Shown piece after piece: positions 4,981 to 29,345 of a DNA stretch of 31,044 nucleotides (position 1 is its first letter; each line of letters starts with the position of its first letter). This DNA is from Alphaproteobacteria bacterium. GTDB lineage: Bacteria; Pseudomonadota; Alphaproteobacteria; JAAXGF01. The notes beneath the pieces were generated by a model. The model saw only the letters and a list, made by a program, of their open reading frames with translations, searched no databases and had not been told where the DNA came from. Location: positions 1-31,044 of the forward strand of contig JAAXGF010000054.1 in NCBI GenBank assembly GCA_012267605.1. Reading direction: 5' to 3'. Both the position numbers and the translations under genes were made by a program.

Positions 4981-5400
4981 CTATTCCTCGGTTTCGTCTT
5001 CCTTAGTCTGGATCGGGCCGGAGTCTATCCCCTTGGCGTCTATATCCCGGTCGACGAATTCGATAACCGCGATTGGCGCCGAATCACCGTAGCGATATCC
5101 GTTGCGGAGCACCCGGGTATAGCCACCCTTTCGTTCCGCGTAGCGTGGCCCCAAAGTGACGAAGAGTTTGTCGGCCATTTTTCCATCGCGAAGAATGGAT
5201 ATGGCGCGACGTCGGGCATGTAGACTCCCGCGTTTTCCTAAGGTCACCAGCTTTTCAACGACTGGGCGCAGCGCCTTCGCCTTCGGCAATGTGGTGGTTA
5301 TTTGTTCGTGCTTGATGAGCGCGCATGCCATGTTCGCGAACAAGGCCTTGCGGTGCGCCGATGTTCGGTTGAGTTTCTTTCCGGCAAGCCCGTGGCGCAT
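4981..5400 (-). CDS. rplQ: 50S ribosomal protein L17
   Basis: MRHG...[31 protein letters not shown]; follows rpoA. Confidence 0.98.
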
Positions 5401-5444
5401 AATTTATTCTCCCGATTCCGCCGGTTTCCTTAGTGCCGTATGGC

Positions 5445-6461: not shown

Positions 6462-6556
6462 GGATGCGACCCCTTAATCATTAATCGTGACGCGGACGTA
6501 TTTCCGCAGCGAAATTCGGTGGCGATACCCGGGATGCCTCCCAGGTGATGTACGCC

Positions 6557-10069: not shown

Positions 10070-10109
10070 ATCCGTCAATGGACGTTCGGGTCAAGCGTTA
10101 AGGCCAATC

Positions 10110-12047: not shown

Positions 12048-12120
12048 CCGATCGCCGTGGCGCACGCGCCGCGCCGATGTCGCCTACCGCCGCTCGGTCG
12101 ATCACGTTCCGCGCGTTTCA

Positions 12121-13278: not shown

Positions 13279-13281
13279 CAA

Positions 13282-14232
13282 ATGTATCCACACCCTCCAA
13301 GTTACGCCAATGGCGAGCGGGTGTCCGAAGTAGGTCTGGTTTTGGTTTACCATGGGGTGTTTCGAGATGTGCCGGCTGAGCTCGCCGGTGCAGTACACAA
13401 TGTTACACCGCGGAGTTTGGGGCGTCAGCTTGACTGGCTGAACAGCCATTTCAAAATAGTACCGCTCGACGCGATGTTCGACGGTTGCTCTCCACGCGGT
13501 AAGGTGGCGATTACGTTCGACGATGGCTACAAGTCGGTATTCACCGAAGCCGCGCCGCTGCTCTTTCGACGAGGAATTCCGTTTACCGTCTTCATTAATG
13601 GGGGAATCCTCAAGAAGGGAATTTTTTGGCGCGACAAGATACGCTGGTTGATTAACAGCCAACGTGTCGAATCGTTTCTTAGCTTTCGTGCGCAGCTGTG
13701 GCCCGGCGAGCCTGAAATTTCGGGGGCAAATTTTTATCGTGGATCCAAGACTCCAGAAGTCAATTCGCGGATCCTGGACGGACAAATCGATGATTACATT
13801 GGTGCCCAAGGTCTTGGCGCCGAGGTCAAGAAGTTGTCGCGCTTTGTCGCAGGTGAAGAGGACCTTATTGATCATCCTCTCGTTACGTACGGTAACCACA
13901 CGCTCAATCACTATGTGCTTTCCTCGTTGCCTGTGGTGGAACAGGCGACCGAAATTGCTGGGAACGACGACGTCTTGCAACATCTCGGTTTGCCATGCTC
14001 GGCGATCTTTGCGATCCCTTTCGGCGATGCCAGGGATACGCCTCGCGGCTTGGCAACATACCTCAGGTCTCAGGGCTACAACGGCATGCTGTTCAGCCGC
14101 AATCGCTTCAATGTCGGCGATCAACTGCCGTTTGCCTGTGAGCGTTTCATGCCCTCCGACGGTTGGACGGACTTTCACCGAAACATGCTGCGTATCCACT
14201 GGAAATGCCGGCGCTCGCCGACGTCGGACTAG
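13282..14232 (+). CDS. Polysaccharide deacetylase (CE4/NodB family)
   Basis: LVYH, ITFDDGY, GNHTLNH (HxxxH), AIPFG. Confidence 0.88.
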   Translation: MYPHPPSYANGERVSEVGLVLVYHGVFRDVPAELAGAVHNVTPRSLGRQLDWLNSHFKIVPLDAMFDGCSPRGKVAITFDDGYKSVFTEAAPLLFRRGIPFTVFINGGILKKGIFWRDKIRWLINSQRVESFLSFRAQLWPGEPEISGANFYRGSKTPEVNSRILDGQIDDYIGAQGLGAEVKKLSRFVAGEEDLIDHPLVTYGNHTLNHYVLSSLPVVEQATEIAGNDDVLQHLGLPCSAIFAIPFGDARDTPRGLATYLRSQGYNGMLFSRNRFNVGDQLPFACERFMPSDGWTDFHRNMLRIHWKCRRSPTSD

Positions 14233-14754: not shown

Positions 14755-15225
14755 CTATTTCGCTTTCCACTCGCCAGCCATCCGACCAGCCTCGGTAAGC
14801 TGCTCAGGGGTCATGCTTGCGGCCAACAGGTCGCGTTGAATGCCGGCGAATGCTGAGCCTTGTCCAGCGGCCAAGCTGTACCACATGTGGGCTCTGATAT
14901 AGTCCTGGGCGGCGCCGTCGCCGTTTCGGTACAATAGCGCCAGATTTTGTTGGGCATCAGGATGGCCTTGCTCGGTCGATCGCAGGTACCACTTCGCCGC
15001 TTCCGCCGATTCCTTCGTCACCCCCTGGCCATTCTGATACATGACTCCAAGGTAGAATTGGGCCCTGGCGTCGCCTTGCTCGGCAAGCGCCCCGAACTCA
15101 CGAAGGGCAGTTTCGTGGTCACGGTTACGGAAAGCTTTGTAGGCTCCCTCGAAATCGGCTCTGAGCGGTGTAGCGAAAGTGAAGATCAACATAATCACCA
15201 CGATCATTCGCAGTCGTATATGCAT
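14755..15225 (-). CDS. Sel1-repeat (SLR) secreted protein
   Basis: Signal peptide, then AEQGDARAQFYLGVMYQNGQGV, EQGHPDAQQNLALLYRNGDGA, AHMWYSLAA. Confidence 0.9.
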   Translation of the reverse strand: MHIRLRMIVVIMLIFTFATPLRADFEGAYKAFRNRDHETALREFGALAEQGDARAQFYLGVMYQNGQGVTKESAEAAKWYLRSTEQGHPDAQQNLALLYRNGDGAAQDYIRAHMWYSLAAGQGSAFAGIQRDLLAASMTPEQLTEAGRMAGEWKAK

Positions 15226-15369
15226 AGCGTTTCCGATCTCGTTCAGCCAATGCCCAATCTTGCTCGTAGTTTAGTTCAGCGTTACGGATTTAACGATCGT
15301 TGTCCAATTCTAGAGCCACGTAGTGCGACAATTCTTTGACCTACCCAATCGCTTGCAAATGGTATCAGG

Positions 15370-15391
15370 CACGTTAGATGTACCTAACGTG
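15370..15391. promoter_or_regulatory. Perfect 8-bp inverted repeat upstream of lptF (candidate operator)
   Basis: CACGTTAG-ATGTAC-CTAACGTG, 44 nt before the lptF ATG, in the divergent Sel1/lptF gap. Confidence 0.4.
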
Positions 15392-15435
15392 GCCGCCCCT
15401 GTGGCGGCTGGAGTTCTTGTATCAGGCTGTTATCA

Positions 15436-16617
15436 ATGCGGATCATAGACCGGTACATCATAAAATCGATCCTTGTTTATGGGTTCACCATGACATGTAT
15501 CGCAGTGTTCGCGCTTCTCCTGGAACGGTTGTTGCGACTGCTCAACCTGGCTGCGAATCCCGATAAAGTAATGATTTACGTATCCCAAATGCTGGTAACC
15601 CTGATCCCACATTATTTAGCGATTGCCCTGCCTGCGGCGTTTTTTTTGGCTGTACTATTGACCTATGGCCGGCTGCAAAGGAACAACGAAATTGCCGTGC
15701 TGACCGGGTCGGGTATTGGCCTTCAACGTCTGATGGCACCAGTGGTCGTATTCGGAATCGTGCTTATGATTATCGCTGCGTATGTCGCCAGTTATTTACA
15801 GCCCCTAGGGCGCTACGCTTACCGGGCGCTCGTCCACACCGTCGAACATGCTTCGTTGAGTGCTGCACTTCGCGAAGGCACTTTTGTTCACGCTGGGGGA
15901 CTAACGTTCTTCGCGGATCGCTTCGCGGTCGACAGCGGATTGTTATCGCACGTGTTCGTTCACGAAATTTCCGGCGATATCTCCTTCGCGACGACAGCGG
16001 CAAAGGGTGTTTTGTTTGGTGCCTCTGATGAATCGGGATCAACCCTTTTACTGGGCGATGGTCTGCGGGTGGGAGTGGCTGCTGACGGTGGCGTTACCGA
16101 TCACGTTCAATTCACCAAATTCAGATGGTCCATCGAACCCGATGGCCAAACTACGTTTCGTTCTCGAGGCAAAGACGAACGGGAACTTACCGTACCAGAA
16201 CTCTGGCACGCGATTGTCGATCCACCGGGCGTGGTTACTTCCGATCGGGTCAGAGCCGAATTTCATTCACGCCTGGCTCGATCCTTGGCGATCGTAATTT
16301 TGCCACTGCTCGCGATCCCGTTGGCAATGTACGGGGGCCGCGGCCGTCAATCTCCGGGCGTTATTAGTGGCGTGATCATTCTCGTTGTATTCGAGGAGGC
16401 ATTGCGATTTGGCGAATCACTCACCGCCTTCGGTGAAGTGTCGCCATGGTTTGGCATATGGCTACCGGTCGGCGTGTTGGCGGTGCTCGGGGCCTATTTA
16501 TCCTTTGAAACTGTTTTTACCGTGCGCAATCAACCGTTCGATCGCGGCTGGTGGGAATTGGGCCGATTTATTTCCGGTATCGGTAAATCTGTTAAGGCGA
16601 TGCGTGGTACGTCATGA
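15436..16617 (+). CDS. LptF/LptG-family permease (LptF-like paralog)
   Basis: IIDRYI, 3 TM + periplasmic jellyroll region + 3 TM, RLQRNNEIAVL.SGI, LREGTF, AEFHSRLA, PLA. Confidence 0.88.
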   Translation: MRIIDRYIIKSILVYGFTMTCIAVFALLLERLLRLLNLAANPDKVMIYVSQMLVTLIPHYLAIALPAAFFLAVLLTYGRLQRNNEIAVLTGSGIGLQRLMAPVVVFGIVLMIIAAYVASYLQPLGRYAYRALVHTVEHASLSAALREGTFVHAGGLTFFADRFAVDSGLLSHVFVHEISGDISFATTAAKGVLFGASDESGSTLLLGDGLRVGVAADGGVTDHVQFTKFRWSIEPDGQTTFRSRGKDERELTVPELWHAIVDPPGVVTSDRVRAEFHSRLARSLAIVILPLLAIPLAMYGGRGRQSPGVISGVIILVVFEEALRFGESLTAFGEVSPWFGIWLPVGVLAVLGAYLSFETVFTVRNQPFDRGWWELGRFISGIGKSVKAMRGTS

Positions 16618-17702
16618 TCGGCGTAATTGGTCGGTACATTACGGGACTATTCATGGCGAGGTTCTGGGGGCTTCTCTTCGGCCTTACGATATTGGTCATA
16701 ATTTTGGATTTGCTTTCCCACGGCGACGAAATCCTGGCGATTAGCGACTCACTGTTTTCGGATTCCTTTCGGTACATTGGTTTGAGAACTCCAGAGATAG
16801 CGTCGCGACTCTTTCCCTTCGCTGTACTACTGGCAACATTGACGACTCTCATTGGATTGGTGCGAACCAGCGAAATGGCTGCGCTGTTGGCCGCTGGTGT
16901 ATCCCAGATCCGATTGATGTCCGCCTTCGTTCCGAGTGCGCTGTTGATTGCCTTGCTGCAGCTTTGTGTCGAGGATCAGCTTCTCCCGCTGACATCAGGT
17001 GAATTGCGTGCGTGGGGCGTCGGCGACTATGGCCTTGGCACGGACCAGGACGAACAAGGACAAACGTGGTTGAGAGAGGGGAGGGACGTTGTCCGGATCG
17101 GTCTTCGCGATGATAGCGGACGGTATCAAGGTATCACCATATTTCGCCGTGACGATAAGGGAAACTTGATCGAGAGGATAGACGCCCGTTCGGCGGTGCT
17201 GTTGGGCGAGAATTGGCATCTGGAAGACATCAAATGGTGGCAGTTCGAAACGCGTGAACTGACAACTGTTGAACGCATGGAATGGCAAACTGAGCTTCGT
17301 CCGCAAACCTTGGCACTGCTCTCCACTCATCCCCGCGAATTGTCATTTCGTTCGCTTCGGCGAATGGTTGATACGTCCGGGTTCGGGAGTCGGCCACGCT
17401 ATATGTATGATGTCTGGTTGCAAAAACGGATTTCGCGCCCAGCCGCTACGGTGCTCATGATTCTCATGGCGATCCCGCTCGTTCAATTTTTCCAAAATCG
17501 TATGAGCGGCGGTTGGTTGCCCGCTTCGGGGGTCGCCCTCGGATTTTTCTATTGGATTTTTGATGGCTTACTTTTGACCATCGGCGAGGCGGGGCTAATG
17601 CCCCCTCCTCTTGCTGCCTGGACCCCCATATTTGTGTTCACGGCCCTGGCCCTGTATTTATCGATACGGTGGGATGCGAGTCGCGCCACCCAGAAGAAAT
17701 GA
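16614..17702 (+). CDS. LptF/LptG-family permease (LptG-like paralog)
   Basis: IGRYI, LVRTSEMAALLAAGVS, same 3+3 TM topology, AAWTP C-terminal motif; ATGA overlap with the previous gene. Confidence 0.88.
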   Translation: MIGVIGRYITGLFMARFWGLLFGLTILVIILDLLSHGDEILAISDSLFSDSFRYIGLRTPEIASRLFPFAVLLATLTTLIGLVRTSEMAALLAAGVSQIRLMSAFVPSALLIALLQLCVEDQLLPLTSGELRAWGVGDYGLGTDQDEQGQTWLREGRDVVRIGLRDDSGRYQGITIFRRDDKGNLIERIDARSAVLLGENWHLEDIKWWQFETRELTTVERMEWQTELRPQTLALLSTHPRELSFRSLRRMVDTSGFGSRPRYMYDVWLQKRISRPAATVLMILMAIPLVQFFQNRMSGGWLPASGVALGFFYWIFDGLLLTIGEAGLMPPPLAAWTPIFVFTALALYLSIRWDASRATQKK

Positions 17703-18655
17703 AGATCGGGCTCGTTAGCAATACTCTTAGCAAACGTAATAGGTCCGGAATTCCGCGTAGGATGAGGAAGCTCCTTTCCCACCCCCATGTCATTCACAAG
17801 CAGATTGCGGGGGTTAGTGAACTGGGAACGGCGCTCGAGGAGTTCGCTTCAGAAGCAGTGGATGTCGTTGCCATCAACGGTGGGGACGGTACGATCTCCG
17901 CGACTTTAACGACAATGTTCGAAAGTTCAATTTTTCGTCGGCCACCGGCACTCGCTGTGTTGCCTGGGGGTATGACGAATATGATTGCCGGCGATGTTGG
18001 CATCGCCCGGACGATTGGACGGGCTGCGACGCGGCTTGCCAATTTGGCTGGTGAAAACACTTGCAATATTCCATGCACGGCGCGGGCAGTGATCCGCGTC
18101 GAGAATGGTGCACCGGATAAACCAGTCTACGGTATGTTCTTCGGTACTGCCGCGATTGTCCGCGCTATCGATCTATGCCGGCGCGCATTCGAAGAAAAAG
18201 GAATGCGATCCTCACCAGCGGTGGCGCTAACGCTGGCCTATGTATTGGGGCGCCGGTTCTTTAGGGGACGCGGCGACGACGACGTATTCCATGGCGACGA
18301 GATGGAAATTCAATTTGATGGTCAGGATCGAGATGATGGTGCGCAGCTCGTCGCGCTAGTTACAACATTGGACCGATTGGTTCTTGGTTCACGACCTTTC
18401 TGGGGTCTCGAAAACGGTAGTTTGCGATTTACTCGGATAGGCTATCCGCCCCATCGACTGATCTGGTTCGCCCGCCGCGTACTTTTCGGTGGGCCCTTGC
18501 GCGATCTCCCCGAACGACACTATCGCAGTCGCAATACGGATAGTCTGACGCTGAACATGGTATGTCCTTTCACCCTTGACGGCGAAATTTTCCAGCCAGG
18601 CGAAGGGAAGCCCGTAGTCATTAGTACTGCAGGAACGGTTCGGTTCGTGAAATGA
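17699..18655 (+). CDS. Diacylglycerol/sphingosine kinase-family lipid kinase (candidate ceramide kinase)
   Basis: NGGDGT, LPGGMTNMIA, LDGE. Start at 17699 overlaps the lptG stop (ATGA). Confidence 0.85.
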   Translation: MKIGLVSNTLSKRNRSGIPRRMRKLLSHPHVIHKQIAGVSELGTALEEFASEAVDVVAINGGDGTISATLTTMFESSIFRRPPALAVLPGGMTNMIAGDVGIARTIGRAATRLANLAGENTCNIPCTARAVIRVENGAPDKPVYGMFFGTAAIVRAIDLCRRAFEEKGMRSSPAVALTLAYVLGRRFFRGRGDDDVFHGDEMEIQFDGQDRDDGAQLVALVTTLDRLVLGSRPFWGLENGSLRFTRIGYPPHRLIWFARRVLFGGPLRDLPERHYRSRNTDSLTLNMVCPFTLDGEIFQPGEGKPVVISTAGTVRFVK

Positions 18656-19611
18656 CGAGCCGGGAGGGCGAATTGAGATTGGGCCAACTTGTACGCAAGG
18701 AGCTACGGCAACATGTCTCGCCCGAGGCGAGGGCGGTTTCAGCGGCGCTAAAAAGCCGTCACAATCCGCTTGGTATCTTGTTCTACGGATCGTGCTTTCG
18801 CGACGGTGGCGCCGGAGGCGTGATGGATTTTTGCGTCCTGACCGATTCCTATCGAGGTTTCTACAGTCGTTTCCTCCCGGCGCTATTCAACACACTGTTA
18901 CCTCCCAATGTTTTTTACTTTGAAGTACCCTACGAAGGGGGAATAATTCGCGCGAAATACGCGGTTGTGTCGTTACACGACCTAGCACGGTTTACCTCTC
19001 CAGATTGCTTCGAGGCGTATTTTTGGGGACGCCTTTCTCAACCATGTGCGCTTGTCTATGCGCGCGACCGGAAAGTCCGGAATGCGGTGGCACAAGCTGT
19101 AGCTAGCGCCGCCCAAAAAATGGTTCGAGAATCTCTGCCGTTAATGGCTTCCCGTTTCACCGCCCGCGAATTGTGGTCGCGTGCGCTTCACGAAAGCTAT
19201 CGTACGGAAATGCGCGCCGAGGCTCTCGACCGGTCTCTTGAACTCTACACCGCTGCCGCCGAACGCTATGATGACGTAGCGGAGGCAATTATTTCGGGTA
19301 GCCATCTCGGCCAACTTGTCCGACCTCGCGGCACAGCTACTTATTTTGTCCGGAATTCATCCTTGGCGCAAAGATGTGTGGCGGGGACGCGTTGGCATTT
19401 CAGGCGAATTGTTGGCAGAATTTTCCACGTACTGCGGCTCACTAAGGCGGCACATACATTCCACGGTGGACTGGAATATATTCTGTGGAAAATTGAGCGT
19501 CACACGGGCAAAAGCCTGCGTTCCAATTCATGGCAGAGACGCCACCCGATTTTAGCGGCCCCATTACTAATCTGGAAACTAAAGTATTGGAAACGAAATA
19601 GGCGCGCTTAA
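18652..19611 (+). CDS. Tam41/Mmp37-like nucleotidyltransferase (candidate lipid-phosphate cytidylyltransferase)
   Basis: FYGS...MDF nucleotidyltransferase motif; PNVFY, KYAVVS and YFWGRLSQP resemble the Tam41 motifs KYGVIS and YLAGRLQKP. Recognised by eye. Confidence 0.65.
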   Translation: MTSREGELRLGQLVRKELRQHVSPEARAVSAALKSRHNPLGILFYGSCFRDGGAGGVMDFCVLTDSYRGFYSRFLPALFNTLLPPNVFYFEVPYEGGIIRAKYAVVSLHDLARFTSPDCFEAYFWGRLSQPCALVYARDRKVRNAVAQAVASAAQKMVRESLPLMASRFTARELWSRALHESYRTEMRAEALDRSLELYTAAAERYDDVAEAIISGSHLGQLVRPRGTATYFVRNSSLAQRCVAGTRWHFRRIVGRIFHVLRLTKAAHTFHGGLEYILWKIERHTGKSLRSNSWQRRHPILAAPLLIWKLKYWKRNRRA

Positions 19612-19662
19612 AGGTCTGTGTTAGACCACTGTGTGATTACGTACCGGCTGCGCCTACTTAAA

Positions 19663-20898
19663 TTAATCGCCAACGTGACTCGCGGTCCGGGGGTTTGAGC
19701 CGCGCGCGTTGTATTCCCGGATGCTCTCGGCCACGTATTCAAAAGCACCGCATATTGTCTCGATCTGGTCCTGGCTGTGGGCAGCCGAAACACTGCAGCG
19801 TAATAACGAGGATGTATCAGGCGTGCCTGGCGGAATCGCGAGGTTCACATAAACTCCAGCATCCAAGATTCGGTTCCAAGCGAGGACCGCTTCCTCCCGC
19901 TGGGGTAGCATCACCGCAATCACAGGGCTCGGAGCGGCCGCTAAAGTCAAATCAATCGCCGCCAACCGATCGTAAAATGCGTGCACGTTTCGCCATAAGC
20001 TATCGCGTAATTCGGGCTCCCTGCGAATCCGGCGCAACGCCGTCAACACAGACGCGACAACCGATGGCGACAAAGATGCAGTAAACATGTAGGGACGGCT
20101 GGCAAGTCTCAGATAATCAAACTTGGGATGATTGGAGGCGCAAAAACCACCCATCGAACCCAGACTCTTGCTAAACGTTCCGACGATGAAATCAACGTCC
20201 GCCGATACGCCGGCTTGCTCGACAACACCTTGGCCTGACTGGCCGTAGATGCCAACCGAATGGGCTTCGTCCACATACAGATATGCGTTGTGCTTACGCT
20301 TTACCTCGGCGAATTCAGCGAGCGGAGCAATATCGCCCAACATGCTGTACAGTCCTTCGACAATAATAAGCTTGTTGGAGTCCGACCTCTTCAATCGCTG
20401 CAGCCGTTTATCAAGATCGGCTGGTGAGTTGTGCCGGAAACGAATTACCGTCGCGCCACTCATTCGGCATCCGTCATAGATGCATGCGTGGCAGTGGGCG
20501 TCCATCAGAATGTAGTCGCCAGGGCCCGCGAGCGCAGAGATCATTCCAAGATTGGCCTGGTATCCTGTCGGAAATACGAGCGTGCTCTTGCATCCGAAGA
20601 ACGAAGCCAGTTCCGTTTCAAGCTCGCGGTGATTGGCGTAAGTTCCATTCGCAATTCGCGAACCCGTCGTTCCCGTGCCTTGCCGCGCCAACGCGTTCTG
20701 AGCGGCGCTGATCGACTCAGGATCAAATGTCAGTCCCAGATAATTATTGGATCCCGCGAGAATGACTTTCTTCCCGCGGATAATCGCCTCCGTCGCCGAA
20801 CGAACCTCGTCCATGCACACACCAAACGGATCACGGCCCATGGCGGCGATCTGTTCATGTTGGGCGGGAAGAGGGGCGATTTTGTCAAAGAGATCCAT
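19663..20898 (-). CDS. spt: Serine palmitoyltransferase (alpha-oxoamine synthase family, PLP)
   Basis: GSNNYLGL, GTTGSRIANGT, TGYQANLG, DEAH, GTFSKSLG (PLP lysine). Adjacent to ACP, SDR and acyl-AMP ligase with no biotin genes, which favours SPT over BioF. Start moved to 20898 (MDLFDK). Confidence 0.85.
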   Translation of the reverse strand: MDLFDKIAPLPAQHEQIAAMGRDPFGVCMDEVRSATEAIIRGKKVILAGSNNYLGLTFDPESISAAQNALARQGTGTTGSRIANGTYANHRELETELASFFGCKSTLVFPTGYQANLGMISALAGPGDYILMDAHCHACIYDGCRMSGATVIRFRHNSPADLDKRLQRLKRSDSNKLIIVEGLYSMLGDIAPLAEFAEVKRKHNAYLYVDEAHSVGIYGQSGQGVVEQAGVSADVDFIVGTFSKSLGSMGGFCASNHPKFDYLRLASRPYMFTASLSPSVVASVLTALRRIRREPELRDSLWRNVHAFYDRLAAIDLTLAAAPSPVIAVMLPQREEAVLAWNRILDAGVYVNLAIPPGTPDTSSLLRCSVSAAHSQDQIETICGAFEYVAESIREYNARGSNPRTASHVGD

Positions 20899-20902
20899 GC
20901 TT

Positions 20903-21154
20903 TTACGCTCCCCGGGCTTGCTTATGAATCGTCTGGACCAAGTCCCCAATCGTGCGGATGTCGGACAACATGTTCATCGGAATGGAGATACGGTAATCGT
21001 CCTCCACTTCCATGATCAAATCAAGTACTGCCACGGAATCAATTTCCAGATCTCCGGCGATATCTGTATCCCTCGACAAAGTAACGTTCCTAACGTTAAA
21101 CGGCTCAAGCAATGTGCACGTCTTGTGAAATACCAAATCGTCCTCGTCGCGCAT
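20903..21154 (-). CDS. Dedicated acyl carrier protein
   Basis: 83 aa, acidic, DLEIDSVAVLDLIMEVED with phosphopantetheine Ser (DSV); 4 nt before spt. Confidence 0.9.
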   Translation of the reverse strand: MRDEDDLVFHKTCTLLEPFNVRNVTLSRDTDIAGDLEIDSVAVLDLIMEVEDDYRISIPMNMLSDIRTIGDLVQTIHKQARGA

Positions 21155-21292
21155 TCTATACGGTCGTCACTCTATAGGATCGTTACATTCCTTATTACAA
21201 CAATTCCGATGTCGCGGAGCTTTCACTTCCCTCTAATCCGCAACCAACCGCCGACCCTGTAAGACACTAAACGTCTTGGCCTGATATTAGCT

Positions 21293-22249
21293 TCAAAGCA
21301 AGTTGTTTTCTAAGTACCAGTTGATTGAGCGCTCAAAACCCCCGTAGATAGACACATTAGGACGCCAATTGGTACAACGCGTCAAGTCATTTTCGCGGCA
21401 CACCCAATCTTTATAAAAAATTTCGCGAACTTTCCCCCTTGTGATCGTCGGCGTAGACCTCGTAATACCACAAATCGCTTGATTGGCAAGTGCTACCACA
21501 CTCATGACGACACGGGGCACTGGTACACACGTTACATGGCGGCCAAATACACGGCCACCGGCATTTGCGATGTCCAACCAACTGTATCCGGCCTCACATT
21601 CGTCGCGAATCTCGAAGGTTTTCCCATCACTGGCCGACGACAAAATCAGGGAGATCACGGCTTCACAAAGATCCGATACAAAGATTAGCGATAAACGGTT
21701 GCCGCGCCGGCTAGGAACCGGGAGCAAGCCGCCGCGAAGCAGTTTAAACAGCTTTAATGTGGCGGTGTCACGCGGGCCGTATACGGCCGGCGGTCGGACG
21801 ATCGTCCAACGCAAGTTACCGCTATGTTCCGCTAGCGCCAGCTCGGCACCGCGTTTACTTTCGGCATATGCCGAGATCTCGGGACTTCGGGCTGCCACCG
21901 ATGACATTAGGATGAATCGGGGTGGCAGGGACCGGGCCACGCAAATCTGCGCCAGATGCGCAGTTCCCGCGCGATTTCCACGATCGAATTCCTTCGAAGT
22001 GGTGGCGTGAATATTGCCCGCACAGTGAACGACAGTGTCCGCACCGTCGACGAGACGGGTGAGACTAGCCCTATGTTCGAGCGAACCTATTACTACGTCG
22101 ACTCCCTGGGCTATTAGATCCGCGTCGTTTCGGCGGCACAGGGCGCAAACGTCAGCACCAGCGGAAATCAAGTGTTCCACTAAGTGTCGGCCAATAAAAC
22201 CCTTAGCACCGGTAACCGCGACGCGTCCACCCGCCAAATCAGATTTCAT
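21293..22249 (-). CDS. NAD-dependent epimerase/dehydratase-type SDR (candidate ceramide reductase, CerR-like)
   Basis: TGAKGFIG, HCAG, SSVAA, YAESK (YxxxK), RPPAVYGP; lies between the acyl ligase and acp. Confidence 0.82.
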   Translation of the reverse strand: MKSDLAGGRVAVTGAKGFIGRHLVEHLISAGADVCALCRRNDADLIAQGVDVVIGSLEHRASLTRLVDGADTVVHCAGNIHATTSKEFDRGNRAGTAHLAQICVARSLPPRFILMSSVAARSPEISAYAESKRGAELALAEHSGNLRWTIVRPPAVYGPRDTATLKLFKLLRGGLLPVPSRRGNRLSLIFVSDLCEAVISLILSSASDGKTFEIRDECEAGYSWLDIANAGGRVFGRHVTCVPVPRVVMSVVALANQAICGITRSTPTITRGKVREIFYKDWVCRENDLTRCTNWRPNVSIYGGFERSINWYLENNLL

Positions 22250-22341
22250 GAAGGTGGCTCTTTGGGCTTACCAAACAATTCCTTCGGTCACGAAGCCGTG
22301 CTGATTGTCCCGATTTTCGGTATGTTCAATCGCAAACCGGC

Positions 22342-24075
22342 CTAGGTCGCCGGCGTTGAATAGACGCCTGACAGGAATTGTGCCTTGGCCGCGGACCGGC
22401 TAATTTTTCCCGAAGAGGTCACGGGTATGCTCCGGGGCTTGGTGAGCACAACTGTGCAATCGACGCCGGCCATTTTGCGAACCACTGAACCGACGTCATC
22501 CTGTAGCTTCGCCCGAGCCTCGTCCGTACTGGCTCGGCACTGGACGATGGTCACGATTCTTTCCGCGCCATCCGCGCCGTCAACGGAAAATGCGGCCACG
22601 TCGCCGCTTCGCATACCCGGCAAGCGTTCCACCGCCCACTCGATATCTTGCGGCCAAATATTGCGGCCATTGCAGATAATGAGGTCCTTGCTGCGGCCAG
22701 TAATAACCAGTGAACCATCTATTGTGTACCCCAGGTCTCCCGTCTCCAACCACCCGTCGTCCGACAATACCCGGGAGGTGGCTTCCGAATCCTGAAAATA
22801 CCCGGCCATCACGCTCGGTCCTCGCACCATGACCCTGCCGACTCGCCTGTCCGCTAGTTCGCTCCCCGTAGAGTCGACAATGCGCAATTCATGATTGGGC
22901 AGGGGCTTACCACACAATACAAATGATCTGGTATGTTCGCTGGATGCTTCAGGAGCTGCCGGTAAGGCTTTCTTGGTCCGCGCGAACTCGTTCAAGTCGA
23001 CACGGTCAATCGAAATTCCCTCGTCCAACGGCGCGAAACTGACGGCAAGCGTCGACTCTGCCAATCCATAGCTCGGCAAGAACGCCGATCGGCGAAATTC
23101 CATCGCGCCGAATCTTTCGGCAAATCGATCCGCGGCGTTCGCCCGCACCATATCACCGCCAATTCCGGCGACACGCCATGACGATAGATCGAACTCCGCC
23201 GGCGCACCATTATTGACCGCGCGTCGGACGCAAAGCTCGTATCCGAAAGAAGGACTAAATGCCAAGGTGCCGCGATATTTGGAAATCATTTCGAGCCAAG
23301 CGAGCGGCCGGCGGGCAAAATCACTAGCGGTAATGTAATCGGTCGATAGTTGGGCCAAAAGGGGCGCAATACAAAACCCGACCAAGCCCATGTCATGAAA
23401 CAATGGAAGCCATGACGTACAGCGATCACCCTCGGTAACCTGTAGGCCATGCGAAATGATGGCGTGAGCATTTTTTGTTACCGCCTCTTGCGACACGGCA
23501 ACTCCTTTGGGCGCGCTCGTACTTCCGGAGGAGTACTGGATATAACATGAGTCGCCACGGCCAGCCGGTCGCAGATGGTCAAATTCGGGCAGGGCGTAGA
23601 TTGCTGCTGGTGTTCCGGTGAATAGCGGCTCGGAACCCGACATGGCTTCAAGAAGAACCTCTTGGAGTTCTTCAGGTGCCACTGCCACCGATGGTTCCGC
23701 CGATTGAATCATCGCGCGCACATGGCGGACGTATGCCTCTCGCCCGCCCAGGTTCATCGGCAGGGGCATCGGAACGGGGATTAGGCTGGCGTACTGGCAA
23801 GCAAAAAAAAGTATGTGAAAATCGACTGACGTATCGATCAACAAAATCATGCGATCACCGCGAGGCAGGCCCAGCGACAAGAGCTTTCCAGCCACGGATA
23901 TCGCCCGTTCGCGCAGTGTGGCGTACGGCAAACTCGCGAGTAGCTCGCCCCTCACAGAAAAGTAATTGAACCCGGTTTCGCCCTTCGCCGCGTACTCAAG
24001 GCCGTCGACCAATGTGTCGAACGGGCCGGGAGATAATGCCAGTGAAGCACTGATCGCAGGTGTTGGACATTGCAT
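22342..24075 (-). CDS. Fatty acyl-AMP ligase / acyl-ACP synthetase
   Basis: YIQYSSGSTSAPKGV, SWLPLFHDMGL, SYGLAESTLAV, WLETGDLG, GRSKDLII, TSSGKISR. Start moved to 24075 (MQCPT). Confidence 0.9.
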   Translation of the reverse strand: MQCPTPAISASLALSPGPFDTLVDGLEYAAKGETGFNYFSVRGELLASLPYATLRERAISVAGKLLSLGLPRGDRMILLIDTSVDFHILFFACQYASLIPVPMPLPMNLGGREAYVRHVRAMIQSAEPSVAVAPEELQEVLLEAMSGSEPLFTGTPAAIYALPEFDHLRPAGRGDSCYIQYSSGSTSAPKGVAVSQEAVTKNAHAIISHGLQVTEGDRCTSWLPLFHDMGLVGFCIAPLLAQLSTDYITASDFARRPLAWLEMISKYRGTLAFSPSFGYELCVRRAVNNGAPAEFDLSSWRVAGIGGDMVRANAADRFAERFGAMEFRRSAFLPSYGLAESTLAVSFAPLDEGISIDRVDLNEFARTKKALPAAPEASSEHTRSFVLCGKPLPNHELRIVDSTGSELADRRVGRVMVRGPSVMAGYFQDSEATSRVLSDDGWLETGDLGYTIDGSLVITGRSKDLIICNGRNIWPQDIEWAVERLPGMRSGDVAAFSVDGADGAERIVTIVQCRASTDEARAKLQDDVGSVVRKMAGVDCTVVLTKPRSIPVTSSGKISRSAAKAQFLSGVYSTPAT

Positions 24076-24464
24076 AGGAATTACCGCCAACCCGCGTGAT
24101 GGTCTCTTACAGTTTTTGTGCCCATGCGAGCCACAACCAACGGACGACAACCCTCGTGCCAAAATTGAACCATTTCACAACACGTCACATACGGTAAATG
24201 ATCCACCCATGAAACGCAAGTTCGCGGCACGACACCTTTTGATCTCCAGGCTTCCTAGATTTGCTCATGGTTAATGCCTTTGAATCGGCGTTCGAAAAGG
24301 TACACCGGAAAAATCCGAGTCGTCCAAACAACGATCAATGACAGGGCAATTCCAAACATGGCCGTAGCAAGATTCCAATCCGACAAATGGTGGATAGGAC
24401 GCTACTATATCTCTCTCAACGGAAAACATCGCCGTGATTGGATATCAGAAACAAACCCATCCGA

Positions 24465-26192
24465 TCATCGAACAGATGTGCGTGCCGCGCGGTCGGTAAC
24501 CGGCCATGCATGTCCGTTGTCCAGGGCGTAGAGACGATCAGCGACACCAACCCAGGCCTTGGTATGAGTTACTGCTAAAATTGTTAGTGAGTTCGACAAA
24601 GCACGCACATTGTGCACAACGGACATCTCGGTTTCCGGGTCGAGGGCGCTCGTGACCTCATCGAGGATCAATAGACGTGGCTGATGAACCAAGGCGCGTG
24701 CCAGCGCGATACGCTGTCGCTGCCCACCCGACACTTTTAGTCCGCGTTCGCCAACCTGCCCATGGATTCCATCTTTCATGGCCTCGACAAACGGCCACGC
24801 TCCCGCCAACTCAAGCGCTCGCTTGACTTCACTGATGGCGATTGATTCATCACCGAGCCTGACGTTTGCGAGAACTGTGTCGTGAAATAGGATGACCTCC
24901 TGGGGCACGTACCCGACCATGCGGCGCCAAGCGTTCATGTCGATATGATCGAACGGGATGCCGTCGATGAGAATATGTCCGGAGTCGGGCCGATACAAAC
25001 CAAGCAAAATGTCGCTTAACGTGCTCTTGCCGCCGCCCGATTCCCCGGTGATGACGGTGAGTTTTCCTGCCGGTATTTCAAGCGAAAGGTTTTCCAGTAC
25101 TTTGTTCGAGCCAAACGAAAGAGCGACGTTTTCAATAACGCAGCCCTCGTTCAAAGTCGGTGTCAAACCGCTTTTGACAGGTTCCGCCTCCTGAATGGAT
25201 TGCTCGATCAGCCGATGGATCGACCAATACGCACTCTCGACAATCATCGCTTTTTGATAATATTGCTGAATTTTCCCAATGGTCGAGACGGTGCTGTGCA
25301 GTAAAAGGCCCATGATGAGCAACTCGGAGATCGGCAACGCCCATTCGCTCACCGCGAGATAGAATCCTATACCGAGACACAACACCAACAGTGGCTCGCG
25401 CAGATTGCGCAAGACATGGGCGCTGATCACCTGTTTGCGAAGCGCTCGGCGAAGGGATTCGATTTTGCCGCCCATAATGGCGGCGAAATGGCCTTGTCGC
25501 GCCATCGCTTTCAACACCTTGATGCCGACTAGGGCGTCGCTCAGATCGGCGATCAGTTCACTCGTACGTTTGGTTTGGCGGCGCCCCGCTCGCTTTGCCA
25601 CGTGAACTAGCCAGTTCAGTACTATGGTGATGACGCAACCGATAAGAACCGCGGCCACTGCCAGTCTCCAGGAAACCAGGAAAGCGACGATGACGTAGAC
25701 GATGCACTGGATAAAGCTGGCGACAGTGAACGCAGCCAACAGGTAGGCATGTCCGGCGCGGCTGGCTTCGATACTCACGGCATTCGCGATGGTACCAACG
25801 GGCAGGCGGGTGAAGTACTCCCATTTTGCCGCGAGTAGCGTATCGATCAATCTGGAACGGAGCCTTGTGGCAACCTCGGCCACCGTGTAGCCGACGTGTT
25901 TCATCGCTAATATTAGAAGCCCGGATTTGATGAAGATGCCGGTGACCACAATCGTTACCAGGCTGCCGAGATCGGGTGTCAGTCCAAGATCGCTCAGAAA
26001 ATCGAGGATGTAGCGGTTGAGCGAAGATGTATCACCCGCTGCGCTGGCATCACTCGCGCTGGCCAACTCGACCAATGGCAACAACGTGGCCAAGCCCACA
26101 CCCTCGGCAAGACCGGCGATTAACAGGCAGACCAGTACAGTCCACCGACTGGTTCCCTTTGAACCGAAAAAAATGCCGAGTACGCCAAACAT
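24465..26192 (-). CDS. ABC exporter, fused TMD-NBD (MsbA-like)
   Basis: Multi-TM N-terminal half; Walker A GESGGGKS, Q-loop YVPQE, signature VSGGQRQRIALARAL, Walker B ILDEVTSALD, H-loop VTH. Confidence 0.92.
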   Translation of the reverse strand: MFGVLGIFFGSKGTSRWTVLVCLLIAGLAEGVGLATLLPLVELASASDASAAGDTSSLNRYILDFLSDLGLTPDLGSLVTIVVTGIFIKSGLLILAMKHVGYTVAEVATRLRSRLIDTLLAAKWEYFTRLPVGTIANAVSIEASRAGHAYLLAAFTVASFIQCIVYVIVAFLVSWRLAVAAVLIGCVITIVLNWLVHVAKRAGRRQTKRTSELIADLSDALVGIKVLKAMARQGHFAAIMGGKIESLRRALRKQVISAHVLRNLREPLLVLCLGIGFYLAVSEWALPISELLIMGLLLHSTVSTIGKIQQYYQKAMIVESAYWSIHRLIEQSIQEAEPVKSGLTPTLNEGCVIENVALSFGSNKVLENLSLEIPAGKLTVITGESGGGKSTLSDILLGLYRPDSGHILIDGIPFDHIDMNAWRRMVGYVPQEVILFHDTVLANVRLGDESIAISEVKRALELAGAWPFVEAMKDGIHGQVGERGLKVSGGQRQRIALARALVHQPRLLILDEVTSALDPETEMSVVHNVRALSNSLTILAVTHTKAWVGVADRLYALDNGHAWPVTDRAARTSVR

Positions 26193-26239
26193 CTTAAGTT
26201 GCGATCACGAAGGCCACGGGCATTGGCCGTCAGGGTTCC

Positions 26240-26722
26240 TCATTGGGTGGCCACTTCGCGATCGGGCCACAGTTCTCGCAAATGGGAAATTAACGCTGAT
26301 CTGTGCGCGTCGTCCATCTCGGTTGACGCGCCAAGCTGCGGTGTCGCCGGCCAACCGGGATCGGCAAAGGATAGGCCGCGAAACGATCGTGAATCGCTGT
26401 ACCGCGGGACGACGTGAAAATGCACGTGCGGATCAACCATCATAAGCATCAAATAATTTAGTTTGTCGTATGCGAAAGCATCGGCAAGAGCTGATTCGAT
26501 ATGTCCGGTCACAAGGTTCAACTCGTTGAACGCTTCTTGGCCGATAGCCGAAAACTTCGTAGCTGATTTCCGGCACGCCAAAATGAGCGCACCTAGGGTG
26601 ATCTGCTGTGGTCGCAATAACACTGTCCATGAAGAGTAATCGGCAATGCATGTCGCCGGGTAGCCGAATTTTCGTATCGTATCGTTAGAGGCTTCGGCGT
26701 GAGTCGTTGGTGATTTGCCCAT
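26240..26722 (-). CDS. HIT-family nucleotide hydrolase
   Basis: WTVLLRPQQITLG, NYLMLMMVDPHVHFHVVPRY (HxHxH). Start moved to 26722. Confidence 0.88.
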   Translation of the reverse strand: MGKSPTTHAEASNDTIRKFGYPATCIADYSSWTVLLRPQQITLGALILACRKSATKFSAIGQEAFNELNLVTGHIESALADAFAYDKLNYLMLMMVDPHVHFHVVPRYSDSRSFRGLSFADPGWPATPQLGASTEMDDAHRSALISHLRELWPDREVATQ

Positions 26723-26983
26723 ATCAATCGCTACCTGACCATAGGAGTTGCGTACCGACCTTACTGCGATGAATGTGGCGAACTTTAGACCAATCCTACT
26801 TGTTGAGAAAACGAAATACATGAACCTCCGTCAGCGCAATGGTCCTTGCCTGTCAAGAAAGATCGTTTATGAACGCGGTCGTCCGGATGTTATGGTGGGG
26901 ACATACCAGCCAAGTCGAATGTGATAGTCCGGGCCGCCGTCGCGACACTGCCAGATGCCCTACGGAGGAAATTCTTGCCGACA

Positions 26984-28162
26984 ATGGTTGAACCTGACGA
27001 AAACTTAGCGCCGAGTATGCCAGGGCCACGTTTACTCATTCTGGGTCATTGCGACGTTTCGATATGGGGAATGACAATCGAGGAACGTCATATGCGTGCA
27101 TTTCGTCGGGCAACTATGCATCAAACTGAATCGACGGGTGGTGGTACCGTAATCATCCGAGCTGACTATATTTTGGGCGAGGACCTTGTTCGCCGATTAA
27201 CCGAATCCGAAGGTGTGATTCTGGCGATTCCAGGCACTGATCCAGCAAGTATGATTGCCGTCGCGGCACATGCTGGTTCCCAGAAAGTGGCGGATGTGCG
27301 CGCCATCGTGGCCCATGAGGTTGACTGCGAGAGCGACCAGATTCCAGACGGAATCAGGATTTTGAACCCGAGTGAATTGGGGTCGGAGTACAATCGGCCA
27401 TTGCGTAAACGAGTGGCGCCCTTGGTCTTGTCGGCGAACGATACGCCGATCGAAAATATCGAGCGCGTGACCTTCGATGCGGTCTACAAGGGCGCTACGG
27501 ATTTCGTCACAAAATGGGTGTGGCCAGTACCGGCTCGCTGGGTGACTCGATGGGCCGCCGCACGCAAGATAACGCCGAATACGGTCACGACTTTCAGCCT
27601 TGGATTGGTGGTTCTGGCCGCGCTCCTTTTTGCGCAAGGAAATTTCCTTGTCGGCATCGCTGTTGCCTGGGCGATGACATTTTTGGATACGGTTGACGGA
27701 AAGCTTGCGCGGGTGACCCTTACCTCGTCGCGTTGGGGAAACATCTACGACCACGGAATTGATCTCATCCACCCGCCGTTTTGGTGGTGGGCCTGGTGGT
27801 ATGGACTTAAGGAAAGTTCAGTTCAAGGGATGACGCCGGAATTGGAATGGGCCCTCGGGATCATCATCATCGGGTACGTCGTGGGCCGGCTCATGGAAGG
27901 CGTATTCAAGCTCTTCTTCGGCATCGAAACTCATATATGGCGGCCCGTGGACTCCTATTTCAGAACCATCACGGCTCGCCGTAATCCTAACTTGGCTATC
28001 CTTATGGTTGCTACGCTTGCGGGGCGGCCTGACCTCGGCTTTTTGGCCGTCGCCGGATGGACCATTTTTTCTCTAATCTTTCATGCGGCGCGAATATTCG
28101 CGGCGGCTTGGGTGCGCGCGTCGGGCGGTGAAATTCGTTCGTGGATGAACGAGCCCAGCTAG
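26984..28162 (+). CDS. CDP-alcohol phosphatidyltransferase with N-terminal extra domain
   Basis: ITPNTVT, signature DTVDGKLAR...WGNIYDHGID, TARRN. Start uncertain (26921 or 26984). Confidence 0.88.
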   Translation: MVEPDENLAPSMPGPRLLILGHCDVSIWGMTIEERHMRAFRRATMHQTESTGGGTVIIRADYILGEDLVRRLTESEGVILAIPGTDPASMIAVAAHAGSQKVADVRAIVAHEVDCESDQIPDGIRILNPSELGSEYNRPLRKRVAPLVLSANDTPIENIERVTFDAVYKGATDFVTKWVWPVPARWVTRWAAARKITPNTVTTFSLGLVVLAALLFAQGNFLVGIAVAWAMTFLDTVDGKLARVTLTSSRWGNIYDHGIDLIHPPFWWWAWWYGLKESSVQGMTPELEWALGIIIIGYVVGRLMEGVFKLFFGIETHIWRPVDSYFRTITARRNPNLAILMVATLAGRPDLGFLAVAGWTIFSLIFHAARIFAAAWVRASGGEIRSWMNEPS

Positions 28163-28202
28163 ACTGGGCATTCAGACGCACGCACCCAAATTCCCAACCA
28201 GC

Positions 28203-29345
28203 CTAGAAAGCGTATTGCCAGCCGAGCGTGATGATTACTTCGCGGGTCATTTGCGGACCGTTCAGGTTCTCGTACATCGGCGCGCCGATCTCGAGAGCAA
28301 GACGTTGACCGCGAATCGCTCCACTCTGGCCCATGAAGTTGAGCCCACCGTGGATGAATACGCGCTCGCCGCCGTAATTATCGGGGTCGGCAGTTTGTAT
28401 TGGAGCACGAATTTGGTCATCCTCACCGTCGATGCGGCCTTCGGTCTCGAAGGCCAAGCGAAGCGATGAGCTCATCCACGGAAACCACGAGTATTGACCC
28501 CACGCCGTTACTCTATGGATGTCGCCGAAGTTGTAGCCCTCGTCGTTGTCCTCGGTGCGAATCTCGCTCGTCCATTGGGCGCCCCAGGTCCAGTCTTCGT
28601 ATTTTCCGTTGTAGGTTAGGCCTGGATGCAGGTCGAAACTTCCTGAGCCGCTTTGCATGGCGTAGGGCACGCGAAGCGTTGGCGCCGTATTGTGGGGGGC
28701 GAGGACGCGCGCCTCATTTTCGATGTCAGCCGTCGGCAGCCCCACCACAGCGTTGAAGTGAATTTTGTGTGTGCCATCGTTATACAGCTTGATCAGACCG
28801 CCGATCTTGGTATTGGCAAAACCTTTCGTCACGGTCGTAAATGTTCCTAGTCGGTTGGTGCCGGCCCCACCCTGGAACGTAATGTGGTCCATCTCTTTTC
28901 GCACGTACATTCCCATGGCCATTAGGGTCAGCCAATTAGTCGGTGCGTACATGGCGCCGAACATGTGCATTTCCATGTTCATGTCTGTTGGAACAACCCG
29001 GAAGGTCGCTGGCGGAGCATTTGGGTTGGCCACATTTGCCGCGATGAAATCTGGTGAAACCTCTTCGCGTCCTATTTGGTTCCTGCCCATGTCCATGAAC
29101 ATGTAACGGTAAGACAGCATAAGCTCGCCTTCACCGTGCATGTGGTCACCCATCACGCCGATTGGCGCATGGCCAGCCGCGTTGAGTTTGCCGAGTCCGC
29201 CTCGAGTGAATTTAACGCCGAAATAGCGCGGCACATCACTATCGTCGCCGCCATGATCTCCGTCGGCATAAACCATCGTGGGCAACGAAATAGTTACCGC
29301 GGCGCAAACAGCAAGGATTGCGAACCAAGTTCTAGAAGTCTTCAT
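28203..29345 (-). CDS. Outer-membrane beta-barrel 'transporter'-type protein with His/Met-rich N-terminal region (candidate copper/metal uptake)
   Basis: Signal peptide ending VYA, HAPIGVMGDHMHGEGE, YRYMFMDM, MNMEMHMFGAMY, C-terminal LGWQYAF beta-signal; strong SD GAGGAGG at 29360-29354. Confidence 0.72.
   Translation of the reverse strand: MKTSRTWFAILAVCAAVTISLPTMVYADGDHGGDDSDVPRYFGVKFTRGGLGKLNAAGHAPIGVMGDHMHGEGELMLSYRYMFMDMGRNQIGREEVSPDFIAANVANPNAPPATFRVVPTDMNMEMHMFGAMYAPTNWLTLMAMGMYVRKEMDHITFQGGAGTNRLGTFTTVTKGFANTKIGGLIKLYNDGTHKIHFNAVVGLPTADIENEARVLAPHNTAPTLRVPYAMQSGSGSFDLHPGLTYNGKYEDWTWGAQWTSEIRTEDNDEGYNFGDIHRVTAWGQYSWFPWMSSSLRLAFETEGRIDGEDDQIRAPIQTADPDNYGGERVFIHGGLNFMGQSGAIRGQRLALEIGAPMYENLNGPQMTREVIITLGWQYAF

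Follow-up and report, generated by a model that had tools for sequence, protein, structure and literature searches.

The closest described counterpart of the locus analyzed here is the 17-gene region CC_1152-CC_1168 (CCNA_01210-01226) of Caulobacter, which is responsible for the synthesis and transport of ceramide and of ceramide-phosphoglycerate and ceramide-diphosphoglycerate (CPG and CPG2) (Olea-Ozuna 2024, PMC11324152; Zik 2022, PMC9393093; Stankeviciute 2022). In this region, CC_1165-CC_1162 are aasR, cerR, acpR and spt; CC_1161 is Tam41-like; CC_1160 is the ceramide kinase CpgB; CC_1159 is a CDP-alcohol transferase, CC_1158 a phosphoesterase, CC_1157 a HIT family protein, CC_1156 and CC_1155 are LptF2 and LptG2, CC_1154 is the bacterial ceramide synthase bCerS, CC_1153 is CofC-like and CC_1152 is a nucleotidyltransferase, whereas the rest consists of the Wzx-like CC_1166, CC_1167 and LptC2 (PMC11324152). 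The cluster is conserved across alpha-, beta- and gammaproteobacteria (PMC11324152), and spt operons have been reported in "some Rhodospirillales" (2023; PMC10411912). Here we describe a locus at positions 15436-28162 of a 31,044-nucleotide (nt) contig from an alphaproteobacterium (JAAXGF010000054.1 of assembly GCA_012267605.1; this whole stretch is referred to below as the window) that is very likely this organism's version of the CC_1152-CC_1168 phosphosphingolipid system, present alongside lipopolysaccharide (LPS); the product is probably a CPG/CPG2-like anionic ceramide, which is a prediction. Within its metagenome-assembled genome (MAG; 3.2 Mb, 411 contigs), which is 94% complete with 1.65% estimated contamination, the window constitutes contig C352. 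The RpoA protein of this genome is 80-84% identical to those of Magnetospirillum, Telmatospirillum, Azospirillum and Skermanella, and only metagenomic relatives are closer, which bears out the "Rhodospirillales-like" label given in a first-pass annotation of the sequence.

In the host genome as a whole, 13 of the 17 Caulobacter genes have homologues by domain and position, those without one being CC_1158, CC_1166, CC_1167 and CC_1168. The window contains eleven sphingolipid-locus genes, for which an open reading frame (ORF) map together with Pfam and NCBIfam scans recovers all the domains and strands listed in the first-pass annotation. On the plus strand, lptF2, lptG2, a lipid kinase gene and a gene for a Tam41-like protein are joined by three 4-nt overlaps (16614/16617, 17699/17702 and 18652/18655), an arrangement that is consistent with translational coupling of all four genes and fits the coupling of the kinase and Tam41-like genes to lptF/G that had been proposed. 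Convergent with this group is a single minus-strand run that encodes the HIT protein, an ABC transporter, a fatty acyl-AMP ligase (FAAL), a short-chain dehydrogenase/reductase (SDR), an acyl carrier protein (ACP) and Spt; the CDP-alcohol phosphotransferase (CDP-OH) gene is divergent from the HIT gene. The same gene order is found in a close relative (L098), the Tam41-like protein of which is 79% identical. The gene calls of this relative (Spt, 411 amino acids (aa); FAAL, 576 aa; HIT, 160 aa; kinase, 318 aa; ABC transporter, 557 aa; CDP-OH protein, 395 aa) support shorter starts, such as those adopted below for several of the ORFs. Promoter and terminator scanning of positions 15000-28500 yields counts no higher than the shuffled expectation, so that the operon boundaries are delimited by gene spacing alone.

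Members of the Tam41-like family occur in at least 588 species-representative genomes, among them genomes of Alpha- and Gammaproteobacteria, Desulfobacterota, Nitrospirota, Myxococcota, Calditrichota, Binatia, Verrucomicrobiota and Marinimicrobia. Gene neighborhoods were counted within 10 kb in the best 80 of the at least 588 loci found in other species with the Tam41-like protein (Caulobacter not being among the 80), after clustering of the ORFs, and the conserved neighbor families were then searched against the whole host genome. The most common neighbors in the 80 loci are the kinase (57), LptF/G (49), bCerS (39), FAAL (36), a metallophosphoesterase (36) and a CofC-like protein (32), followed by the SDR and CDP-OH proteins (28 each), Spt (25), ACP (20) and an NTP_transferase protein (17), and then by the ABC transporter (13), an FA_hydroxylase family protein (12), HIT (10) and DUF2141 (8). 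The reverse searches land on genes of the window and of two other contigs of the host genome, C110 and C2; in particular, all 10 HIT genes from the 10 loci have the window HIT gene as their best match. The same families recur across the 80 loci, and their co-location is far beyond chance. Many alphaproteobacterial MAGs likewise have lptF2-lptG2-kinase-Tam41 facing spt-acp-SDR-FAAL, and the architecture is also seen in cultured bacteria such as Dongia soli (L062) and Aquibaculum arenosum (L057). In a Rhodospirillales MAG (L003), the whole set is contiguous, the order being a CofC-like gene, an FA hydroxylase gene, the eleven window genes, and HAD-IB phosphatase and NTP_transferase genes, the latter two (16429-17538) directly following the CDP-alcohol transferase gene. 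Thus, the host locus can be regarded as a fragmented version of the L003 arrangement, and the "rearranged gene order" of the first-pass annotation is seen in the bCerS and HAD-NTP-transferase modules, which are contiguous with the locus in L003 and are found on other contigs here. Within the class, the distribution of the Tam41-like protein is patchy: a match was detected in 6 of 12 other genomes of the same GTDB family (37-45% identity) and in 1 of 18 other families sampled.

The spt gene (19663..20898, minus strand) lies in an ORF that extends to 20949; the N-terminal translation points to the ATG at 20898, located 4 nt past the acp stop, as the likely start. The encoded pyridoxal phosphate (PLP) enzyme passes the NCBIfam equivalog model NF047599 with 624.3 bits (cut-off 500) and falls below the cut-offs of the models for BioF (341 bits vs 426), Kbl (311 vs 460), ALAS (244 vs 339) and the CqsA type (200 vs 428). 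A search of PDB sequences gives 458 bits for the serine palmitoyltransferase (SPT) of S. wittichii (2x8u) and 444 bits for that of S. paucimobilis, compared with 218 bits for Kbl, 190 bits for BioF and 170 bits for cysteate acyltransferase (28eh). The protein retains the motifs GTFSKS, with the lysine that we take to bind PLP, as well as DAHCHA, VDEAH and LLRCS, the histidine, aspartate and arginine of which are presumably catalytic. The equivalent of Arg378 of S. paucimobilis SPT (approximately residue 372 of the 428-aa ORF) is Ile, and Ile, Leu or Phe is found in this position in 25 of the 25 cluster-linked Spt homologs examined. By sequence, the PLP enzyme is a serine palmitoyltransferase that groups with the SPTs and not with BioF or Kbl, as initially annotated. 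It passes the NCBIfam "BetaP" SPT model and not the "AlphaP" model (491 bits vs the cut-off of 670), despite the alphaproteobacterial host.

Consecutive on the minus strand between 24162 and 19663, the four genes aasR-cerR-acpR-spt are in the order of Caulobacter CC_1165-CC_1162. The aasR-like gene (22342..24075; the ORF extends to 24162, and the N-terminal translation suggests a start at about 24075) encodes a predicted fatty acyl-AMP ligase/acyl-ACP synthetase that passes NF006624, the fatty acyl-AMP ligase model, with 761 bits (cut-off 600). The cerR-like gene (21293..22249) occupies the position of CC_1164 and encodes a putative NAD(P)-dependent reductase of the SDR/epimerase family (Epimerase, 79.2 bits; NAD_binding_10, 65.7 bits). 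The acpR-like gene for a dedicated ACP (20903..21154; PP-binding, 36.1 bits), with the LEIDSV serine motif, is located between the SDR gene and spt, as is CC_1163.

The bCerS gene is outside the window, on contig C110 (L083:3848-4999, minus strand), and encodes a 383-aa GNAT-like protein. The structural model (predicted local distance difference test score, pLDDT, 89) has as its top Swiss-Prot match A0A0H3C8X0, "Bacterial ceramide synthase" of Caulobacter vibrioides NA1000 (E-value 7e-53, TM-score 0.94, 45% identity), and the PDB matches are tandem-GNAT acyltransferases. The second-best structural match is YghO of E. coli K-12 (42% identity, TM-score 0.93), which is thus a close homolog of the bacterial ceramide synthase; E. 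coli is not known to synthesize sphingolipids. On C110, bCerS belongs to a minus-strand run of four genes that encode a DUF2141 protein (163 aa), an FA_hydroxylase family protein (286 aa), bCerS and a MobA/CofC-like nucleotidyltransferase; the first two (5085-6480) are directly upstream of bCerS. Such FA_hydroxylase and DUF2141 genes, together or singly, adjoin bCerS or lptF2 in 12 and 8 of the 80 loci, respectively; the former is a candidate for hydroxylating the sphingolipid and the latter for some periplasmic step. In Caulobacter, acyl hydroxylation has been ascribed to a DesA-family enzyme encoded elsewhere (PMC11324152). NCBIfam holds no models for bCerS, the Tam41-like protein, the HIT protein, FA_hydroxylase or DUF2141.

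Among the putative head-group genes, the cpgB-like lipid (ceramide) kinase gene (17699..18655, plus strand; DAGK_cat, 43.9 bits) is in an ORF that opens with GTG at 17669, the likely start being the ATG of the first methionine at 17699, which overlaps the lptG2 stop. The protein contains the GGDG motif (NGGDGT) and lacks CxxxCxxC, and Caulobacter CpgB, which has ceramide kinase activity, likewise combines GGDG with the absence of this eukaryotic motif (PMC10331486). The kinase gene adjoins the Tam41-like gene in 57 of the 80 loci. The product of the latter (cpgC/CC_1161-like; 18652..19611, plus strand) matches Pfam Tam41_Mmp37 with 23.1 bits, slightly below the cut-off of 24, and is predicted to adopt the Tam41 nucleotidyltransferase fold: an AlphaFold model built from a 17-sequence alignment (pLDDT 87.7) identifies the Tam41 CDP-diacylglycerol synthases 6ig4, 6ig2 and 7ecd as the top PDB matches (E-values 1e-8 to 2e-7, probability 1.00), and the top twelve Swiss-Prot matches are all mitochondrial Tam41.

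The cpgA/CC_1159-like CDP-alcohol phosphotransferase (26984..28162, plus strand; the ORF opens at 26921, and the start at 26984 is favored by the ESM Atlas record, which begins at residue 22) matches PF01066 with 41.8 bits across residues 217-283 and contains the complete motif D(x)2DG(x)2AR(x)8G(x)3D(x)3D. The cytoplasmic N-terminal domain of approximately 200 aa (26984-27560) has no Pfam match; the predicted structure resembles NTP-transferase + CDP-OH bifunctional (IPCT/DIPPS-like) proteins over residues 36-403 (TM-score 0.77), which suggests that the N-terminus is a degenerate nucleotidyltransferase-like domain. ESM Atlas look-ups for this protein and the kinase return generic names only. 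The CC_1157-like HIT protein (26240..26722, minus strand; 23.8 bits; the ORF extends to 26821, with the start at 26722 again suggested by the N-terminal translation) has an intact HVHFHVV triad. Two further nucleotidyltransferases are encoded on the other contigs, namely, the CofC-like protein (C110, 3009-3902), which matches PF12804 and, weakly, TIGR03552, the families published for CC_1153, and an NTP_transferase protein (C2, 1889-2653), which matches PF12804, PF00483 and PF01128, the families published for CC_1152. Immediately upstream of the latter (the pair spans 1163-2653) is a gene for a HAD-IB phosphatase that could take over the role of the missing CC_1158 phosphoesterase.

The lptF2 (15436..16617) and lptG2 (16614..17702) genes, both on the plus strand, encode LptF/LptG-family permeases that match PF03739 with 215.8 and 231.6 bits, respectively; against TIGR04407 (LptF), lptF2 scores 219 bits, slightly below the cut-off of 230. 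The genome contains four PF03739 matches, two in the window and two on contig C78, and, of the 84 LptF/G proteins linked to the cluster in other genomes, 60 have their best match in the window pair and not in that of C78. The lptF/G genes initially noted in the locus are thus a second copy, and the housekeeping pair is that on C78. Other housekeeping envelope genes found elsewhere in the genome encode an MsbA-like transporter (C104), a single LptC, and LpxC; together with the C78 pair, these genes imply that the organism makes LPS too, like Caulobacter.

The ABC half-transporter (24465..26192, minus strand), which combines a transmembrane domain and a nucleotide-binding domain (ABC_membrane and ABC_tran of Pfam), was considered as MsbA and rejected: it scores 229 bits against TIGR02203 (cut-off 602) and ranks sixth in the genome, the best score being that of the C104 protein (572 bits), although it would operate as a half-transporter of the MsbA type. 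Orthologs of this exporter are found in 13 of the 80 loci, right after spt, in the same operon, in Desulfobacterota (L028, L032 and L040) and upstream of FAAL in alphaproteobacteria. Several lineages of alpha- and gammaproteobacteria have the gene linked to the sphingolipid locus; 12 of 14 cluster-linked ABC proteins have their best match in the window gene and not in the housekeeping MsbA. Its place upstream of aasR is the slot of the Wzx-like CC_1166 in Caulobacter. Given that the sphingolipid flippase is still listed as unidentified in the Caulobacter literature, the embedded half-transporter is a reasonable candidate for a sphingolipid flippase/exporter. More tentatively, and with appreciable doubt, it could be a dedicated inner-membrane flippase of (phospho)ceramide that replaces CC_1166 non-orthologously and, together with a HAD-IB phosphatase replacing CC_1158, defines a distinct variant of the system.

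By homology and synteny, the following pathway can be proposed. The AasR-like ligase would load a fatty acid on the dedicated ACP, Spt would condense the acyl-ACP with serine to give 3-ketosphinganine, bCerS would N-acylate this product, and the CerR-like SDR would reduce the 3-keto group; the FA_hydroxylase family enzyme encoded beside bCerS probably hydroxylates the lipid. The CpgB-like kinase would then form ceramide-1-phosphate, which the Tam41-fold enzyme would activate or extend, NDP-ceramide being one possibility, as proposed for CC_1161; the genomic context suggests that ceramide-1-phosphate, and not phosphatidate, is the substrate of the latter enzyme. The CDP-alcohol transferase, the HIT protein and the CofC-like and CC_1152-like proteins are predicted to build an anionic head group of the ceramide-(di)phosphoglycerate type, and the HAD-IB phosphatase may act in place of the absent CC_1158. 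The embedded ABC half-transporter is the candidate for flipping the lipid across the inner membrane, from which LptF2/LptG2, driven by the housekeeping LptB, would extract it and feed it into the shared Lpt bridge leading to the outer membrane.

Several observations weigh against this reading. It draws on genes of a fragmented, incomplete MAG, and bCerS and two head-group genes are located on other short contigs; the initial description of the locus as "near-complete" holds in the sense that the bCerS, CC_1153-like and CC_1152-like genes are missing from the window and present on C110 and C2. Homologs of the Glyphos_transf protein of the CC_1167 type and of CC_1166 were not found in the genome, nor was LptC2, the single LptC being encoded beside an ABC ATPase. 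A genome-wide search revealed no convincing metallophosphoesterase of the CC_1158 type, the best match (28% identity, 57 bits) being on contig C86; in Caulobacter, CC_1158 is dispensable for CPG2 and is missing from most published orthologous clusters (PMC11324152). A direct link to a Caulobacter protein, through the Swiss-Prot structures, is available for bCerS only, the other genes being assigned by domain family, motifs and conserved position. Finally, the chemistry of CC_1161, CC_1159, CC_1153, CC_1152 and CC_1157 is unsettled even in Caulobacter, so that the product is given as a prediction.

The alternatives that have to be considered differ in how much of the pathway they retain. The least disruptive one keeps the ceramide backbone and assigns a different head group, a possibility raised in the first-pass annotation, such as ceramide-phosphoinositol, ceramide-phosphoglycerol or another alcohol, made from NDP-ceramide by the CDP-alcohol transferase. 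The nearest named NCBIfam models for the CDP-OH domain are PIP synthase and archaetidylinositol-phosphate synthase, at scores far below the cut-off (47.8 vs 170 bits), and the resemblance of the whole protein to bifunctional enzymes of the IPCT/DIPPS type, the absence of CC_1158 alongside a locus-linked HAD-IB phosphatase and the unsettled head-group chemistry in Caulobacter all leave room for such a product. We nevertheless consider it unlikely because homologs of all genes that are genetically required for CPG/CPG2 (CC_1160, CC_1161, CC_1159, CC_1153 and CC_1152) are present, CPG/CPG2 production by Nitrosomonas, Azotobacter and P. luteola has been predicted from an identical 13-gene subset (PMC11324152), and the locus lacks an inositol-phosphate synthase or any other gene for a head-group precursor. 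The full CC_1152/1153/1159/1160/1161 set argues for a product of the ceramide-phosphoglycerate type.

More drastic readings question the backbone itself. If C110 and C2 were binning contaminants, the pathway would be incomplete, and only synthesis of a long-chain base or an orphan remnant would be left. Such contamination is conceivable in a fragmented MAG with contigs as short as 7.0 kb (C110) and 3.7 kb (C2), but it is very improbable given that both contigs match the host genome in GC content (0.552 and 0.547, respectively; genome mean 0.561) and in tetranucleotide use (correlation 0.96 and 0.91; genome median 0.94, 5th percentile 0.82), that their genes are closest to homologs from the same alphaproteobacterial MAGs that are nearest for the window genes, and that the window genes all have intact frames and motifs. 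Even less credible is the possibility that the PLP enzyme belongs to a different class of alpha-oxoamine synthases (BioF, Kbl, cysteate acyltransferase or CqsA-like) and that the locus produces a non-sphingoid aminolipid or sulfonolipid. The breadth of the alpha-oxoamine synthase family and the Ile at the Arg378-equivalent position could be cited in its favor. The residue, however, varies in the same manner in all cluster-linked Spt homologs, the SPT equivalog model is passed whereas those for the other enzymes are not, the scores against SPT structures are double those against Kbl and BioF, with cysteate acyltransferase lower still, a bCerS ortholog is present, and a second alpha-oxoamine synthase paralog, on contig C121, is available for biotin, glycine or heme metabolism. 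The anionic-sphingolipid reading of the first-pass annotation is supported at the genomic level by the Spt class, the Caulobacter gene order and the counterparts of CC_1160, CC_1161, CC_1157 and CC_1159.

Other genes of the window were considered as parts of the system and rejected. The gene at 28203-29345 (minus strand, 380 aa), considered as the missing bCerS, shows no GNAT signal, has a faint match to Phenol_MetA_deg (an outer-membrane barrel) and has no homolog in the 80 loci; it is probably outside the sphingolipid system. In the close relative L098 it is conserved downstream of the locus, the gene at the equivalent position encoding a 381-aa protein without a Pfam match. The GT4-AsnB-GT4-CE4 glycan cassette (8942-14232) does not accompany the cluster in the 80 loci and is absent upstream in L098, where genes for radical-SAM/SPASM, FGE-sulfatase and Tricorn-like peptidase proteins occupy its position. 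Likewise, a Sel1 gene and a 134-aa ORF show no co-occurrence with the cluster in these loci.

These results add an uncultured Rhodospirillales-like lineage to the bacteria that are predicted to have anionic sphingolipids in the outer membrane together with LPS. Such lipids influence, in Caulobacter, how sensitive the cells are to polymyxin, how well they resist detergents and how well they tolerate the loss of lipid A. Moreover, the ABC exporter, the FA_hydroxylase family protein, DUF2141 and the HAD-IB phosphatase are associated with the locus in some lineages and accordingly are candidates for flipping, hydroxylation and dephosphorylation steps. The kinase/Tam41-like/LptF2G2 module extends well past Proteobacteria: together with bCerS, it is found in MAGs labelled Nitrospirota, Calditrichota, Marinimicrobia, Binatia, Verrucomicrobiota and Myxococcota (loci L003-L082), a range wider than the alpha- to deltaproteobacterial span given for CC_1161 homologs (PMC11324152).

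Compared with Caulobacter, the host locus shares the aasR-cerR-acpR-spt order, the CpgB-type kinase gene adjoining the CC_1161-type gene, the lptF2-lptG2 pair, the adjacent HIT and CDP-alcohol transferase genes, the bCerS, CC_1153-type and CC_1152-type genes, and the coexistence with LPS genes. Unlike the Caulobacter region, it is divided among three or more sites (the window, C110 and C2), has an ABC half-transporter upstream of aasR in the place of the Wzx-like CC_1166, and combines bCerS with flanking FA_hydroxylase family and DUF2141 genes and the CC_1152-like gene with HAD-IB. The Caulobacter LptF2 and LptG2 form a complex that uses the housekeeping LptB and is needed once sphingolipids are made; lptF2/lptG2 are present in numerous sphingolipid loci, whereas lptC2 is described as confined to Caulobacter (Uchendu, Isom, Klein 2026, bioRxiv 10.64898/2026.04.12.717747). 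As in that system, the host has two permeases in a sphingolipid locus that lacks lptB, lptA, lptD and lptE, with the housekeeping pair elsewhere; it differs in the absence of LptC2 and in the apparent translational coupling of the permeases to the kinase and Tam41-like genes. With the mitochondrial and Firmicutes Tam41 proteins (6ig2, 6ig4 and 7ecd), the Tam41-like protein shares the fold (Foldseek probability 1.00, TM-score 0.5-0.64) and the N-terminal YGS...D nucleotidyltransferase motif region, at an identity of only 11-17%.

The closest parallel in gene content is provided by N. eutropha, A. vinelandii and P. luteola, which carry the identical subset of 13 of the 17 genes and for which CPG and CPG2 synthesis has been predicted (PMC11324152). 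In N. eutropha, the genes are similarly scattered, over three genomic regions; the present host differs from these bacteria in being an uncultured Rhodospirillales-like alphaproteobacterium with an embedded ABC exporter. The suggestion in the first-pass annotation that the presence of the pathway in this lineage might be novel was overstated, as the locus and its spread (PMC11324152), the Rhodospirillales spt operons (PMC10411912) and the function of LptF2/LptG2 (bioRxiv 10.64898/2026.04.12.717747) have already been published; a paper on Black Sea sphingolipids (PMC11334938) mentions neither Rhodospirillales nor CpgB. Thus, the pathway itself is not new, and the host locus is a further example of the published system, with modest lineage-specific variation that consists of the embedded ABC exporter distinct from MsbA, the HAD-IB phosphatase and the split locus.

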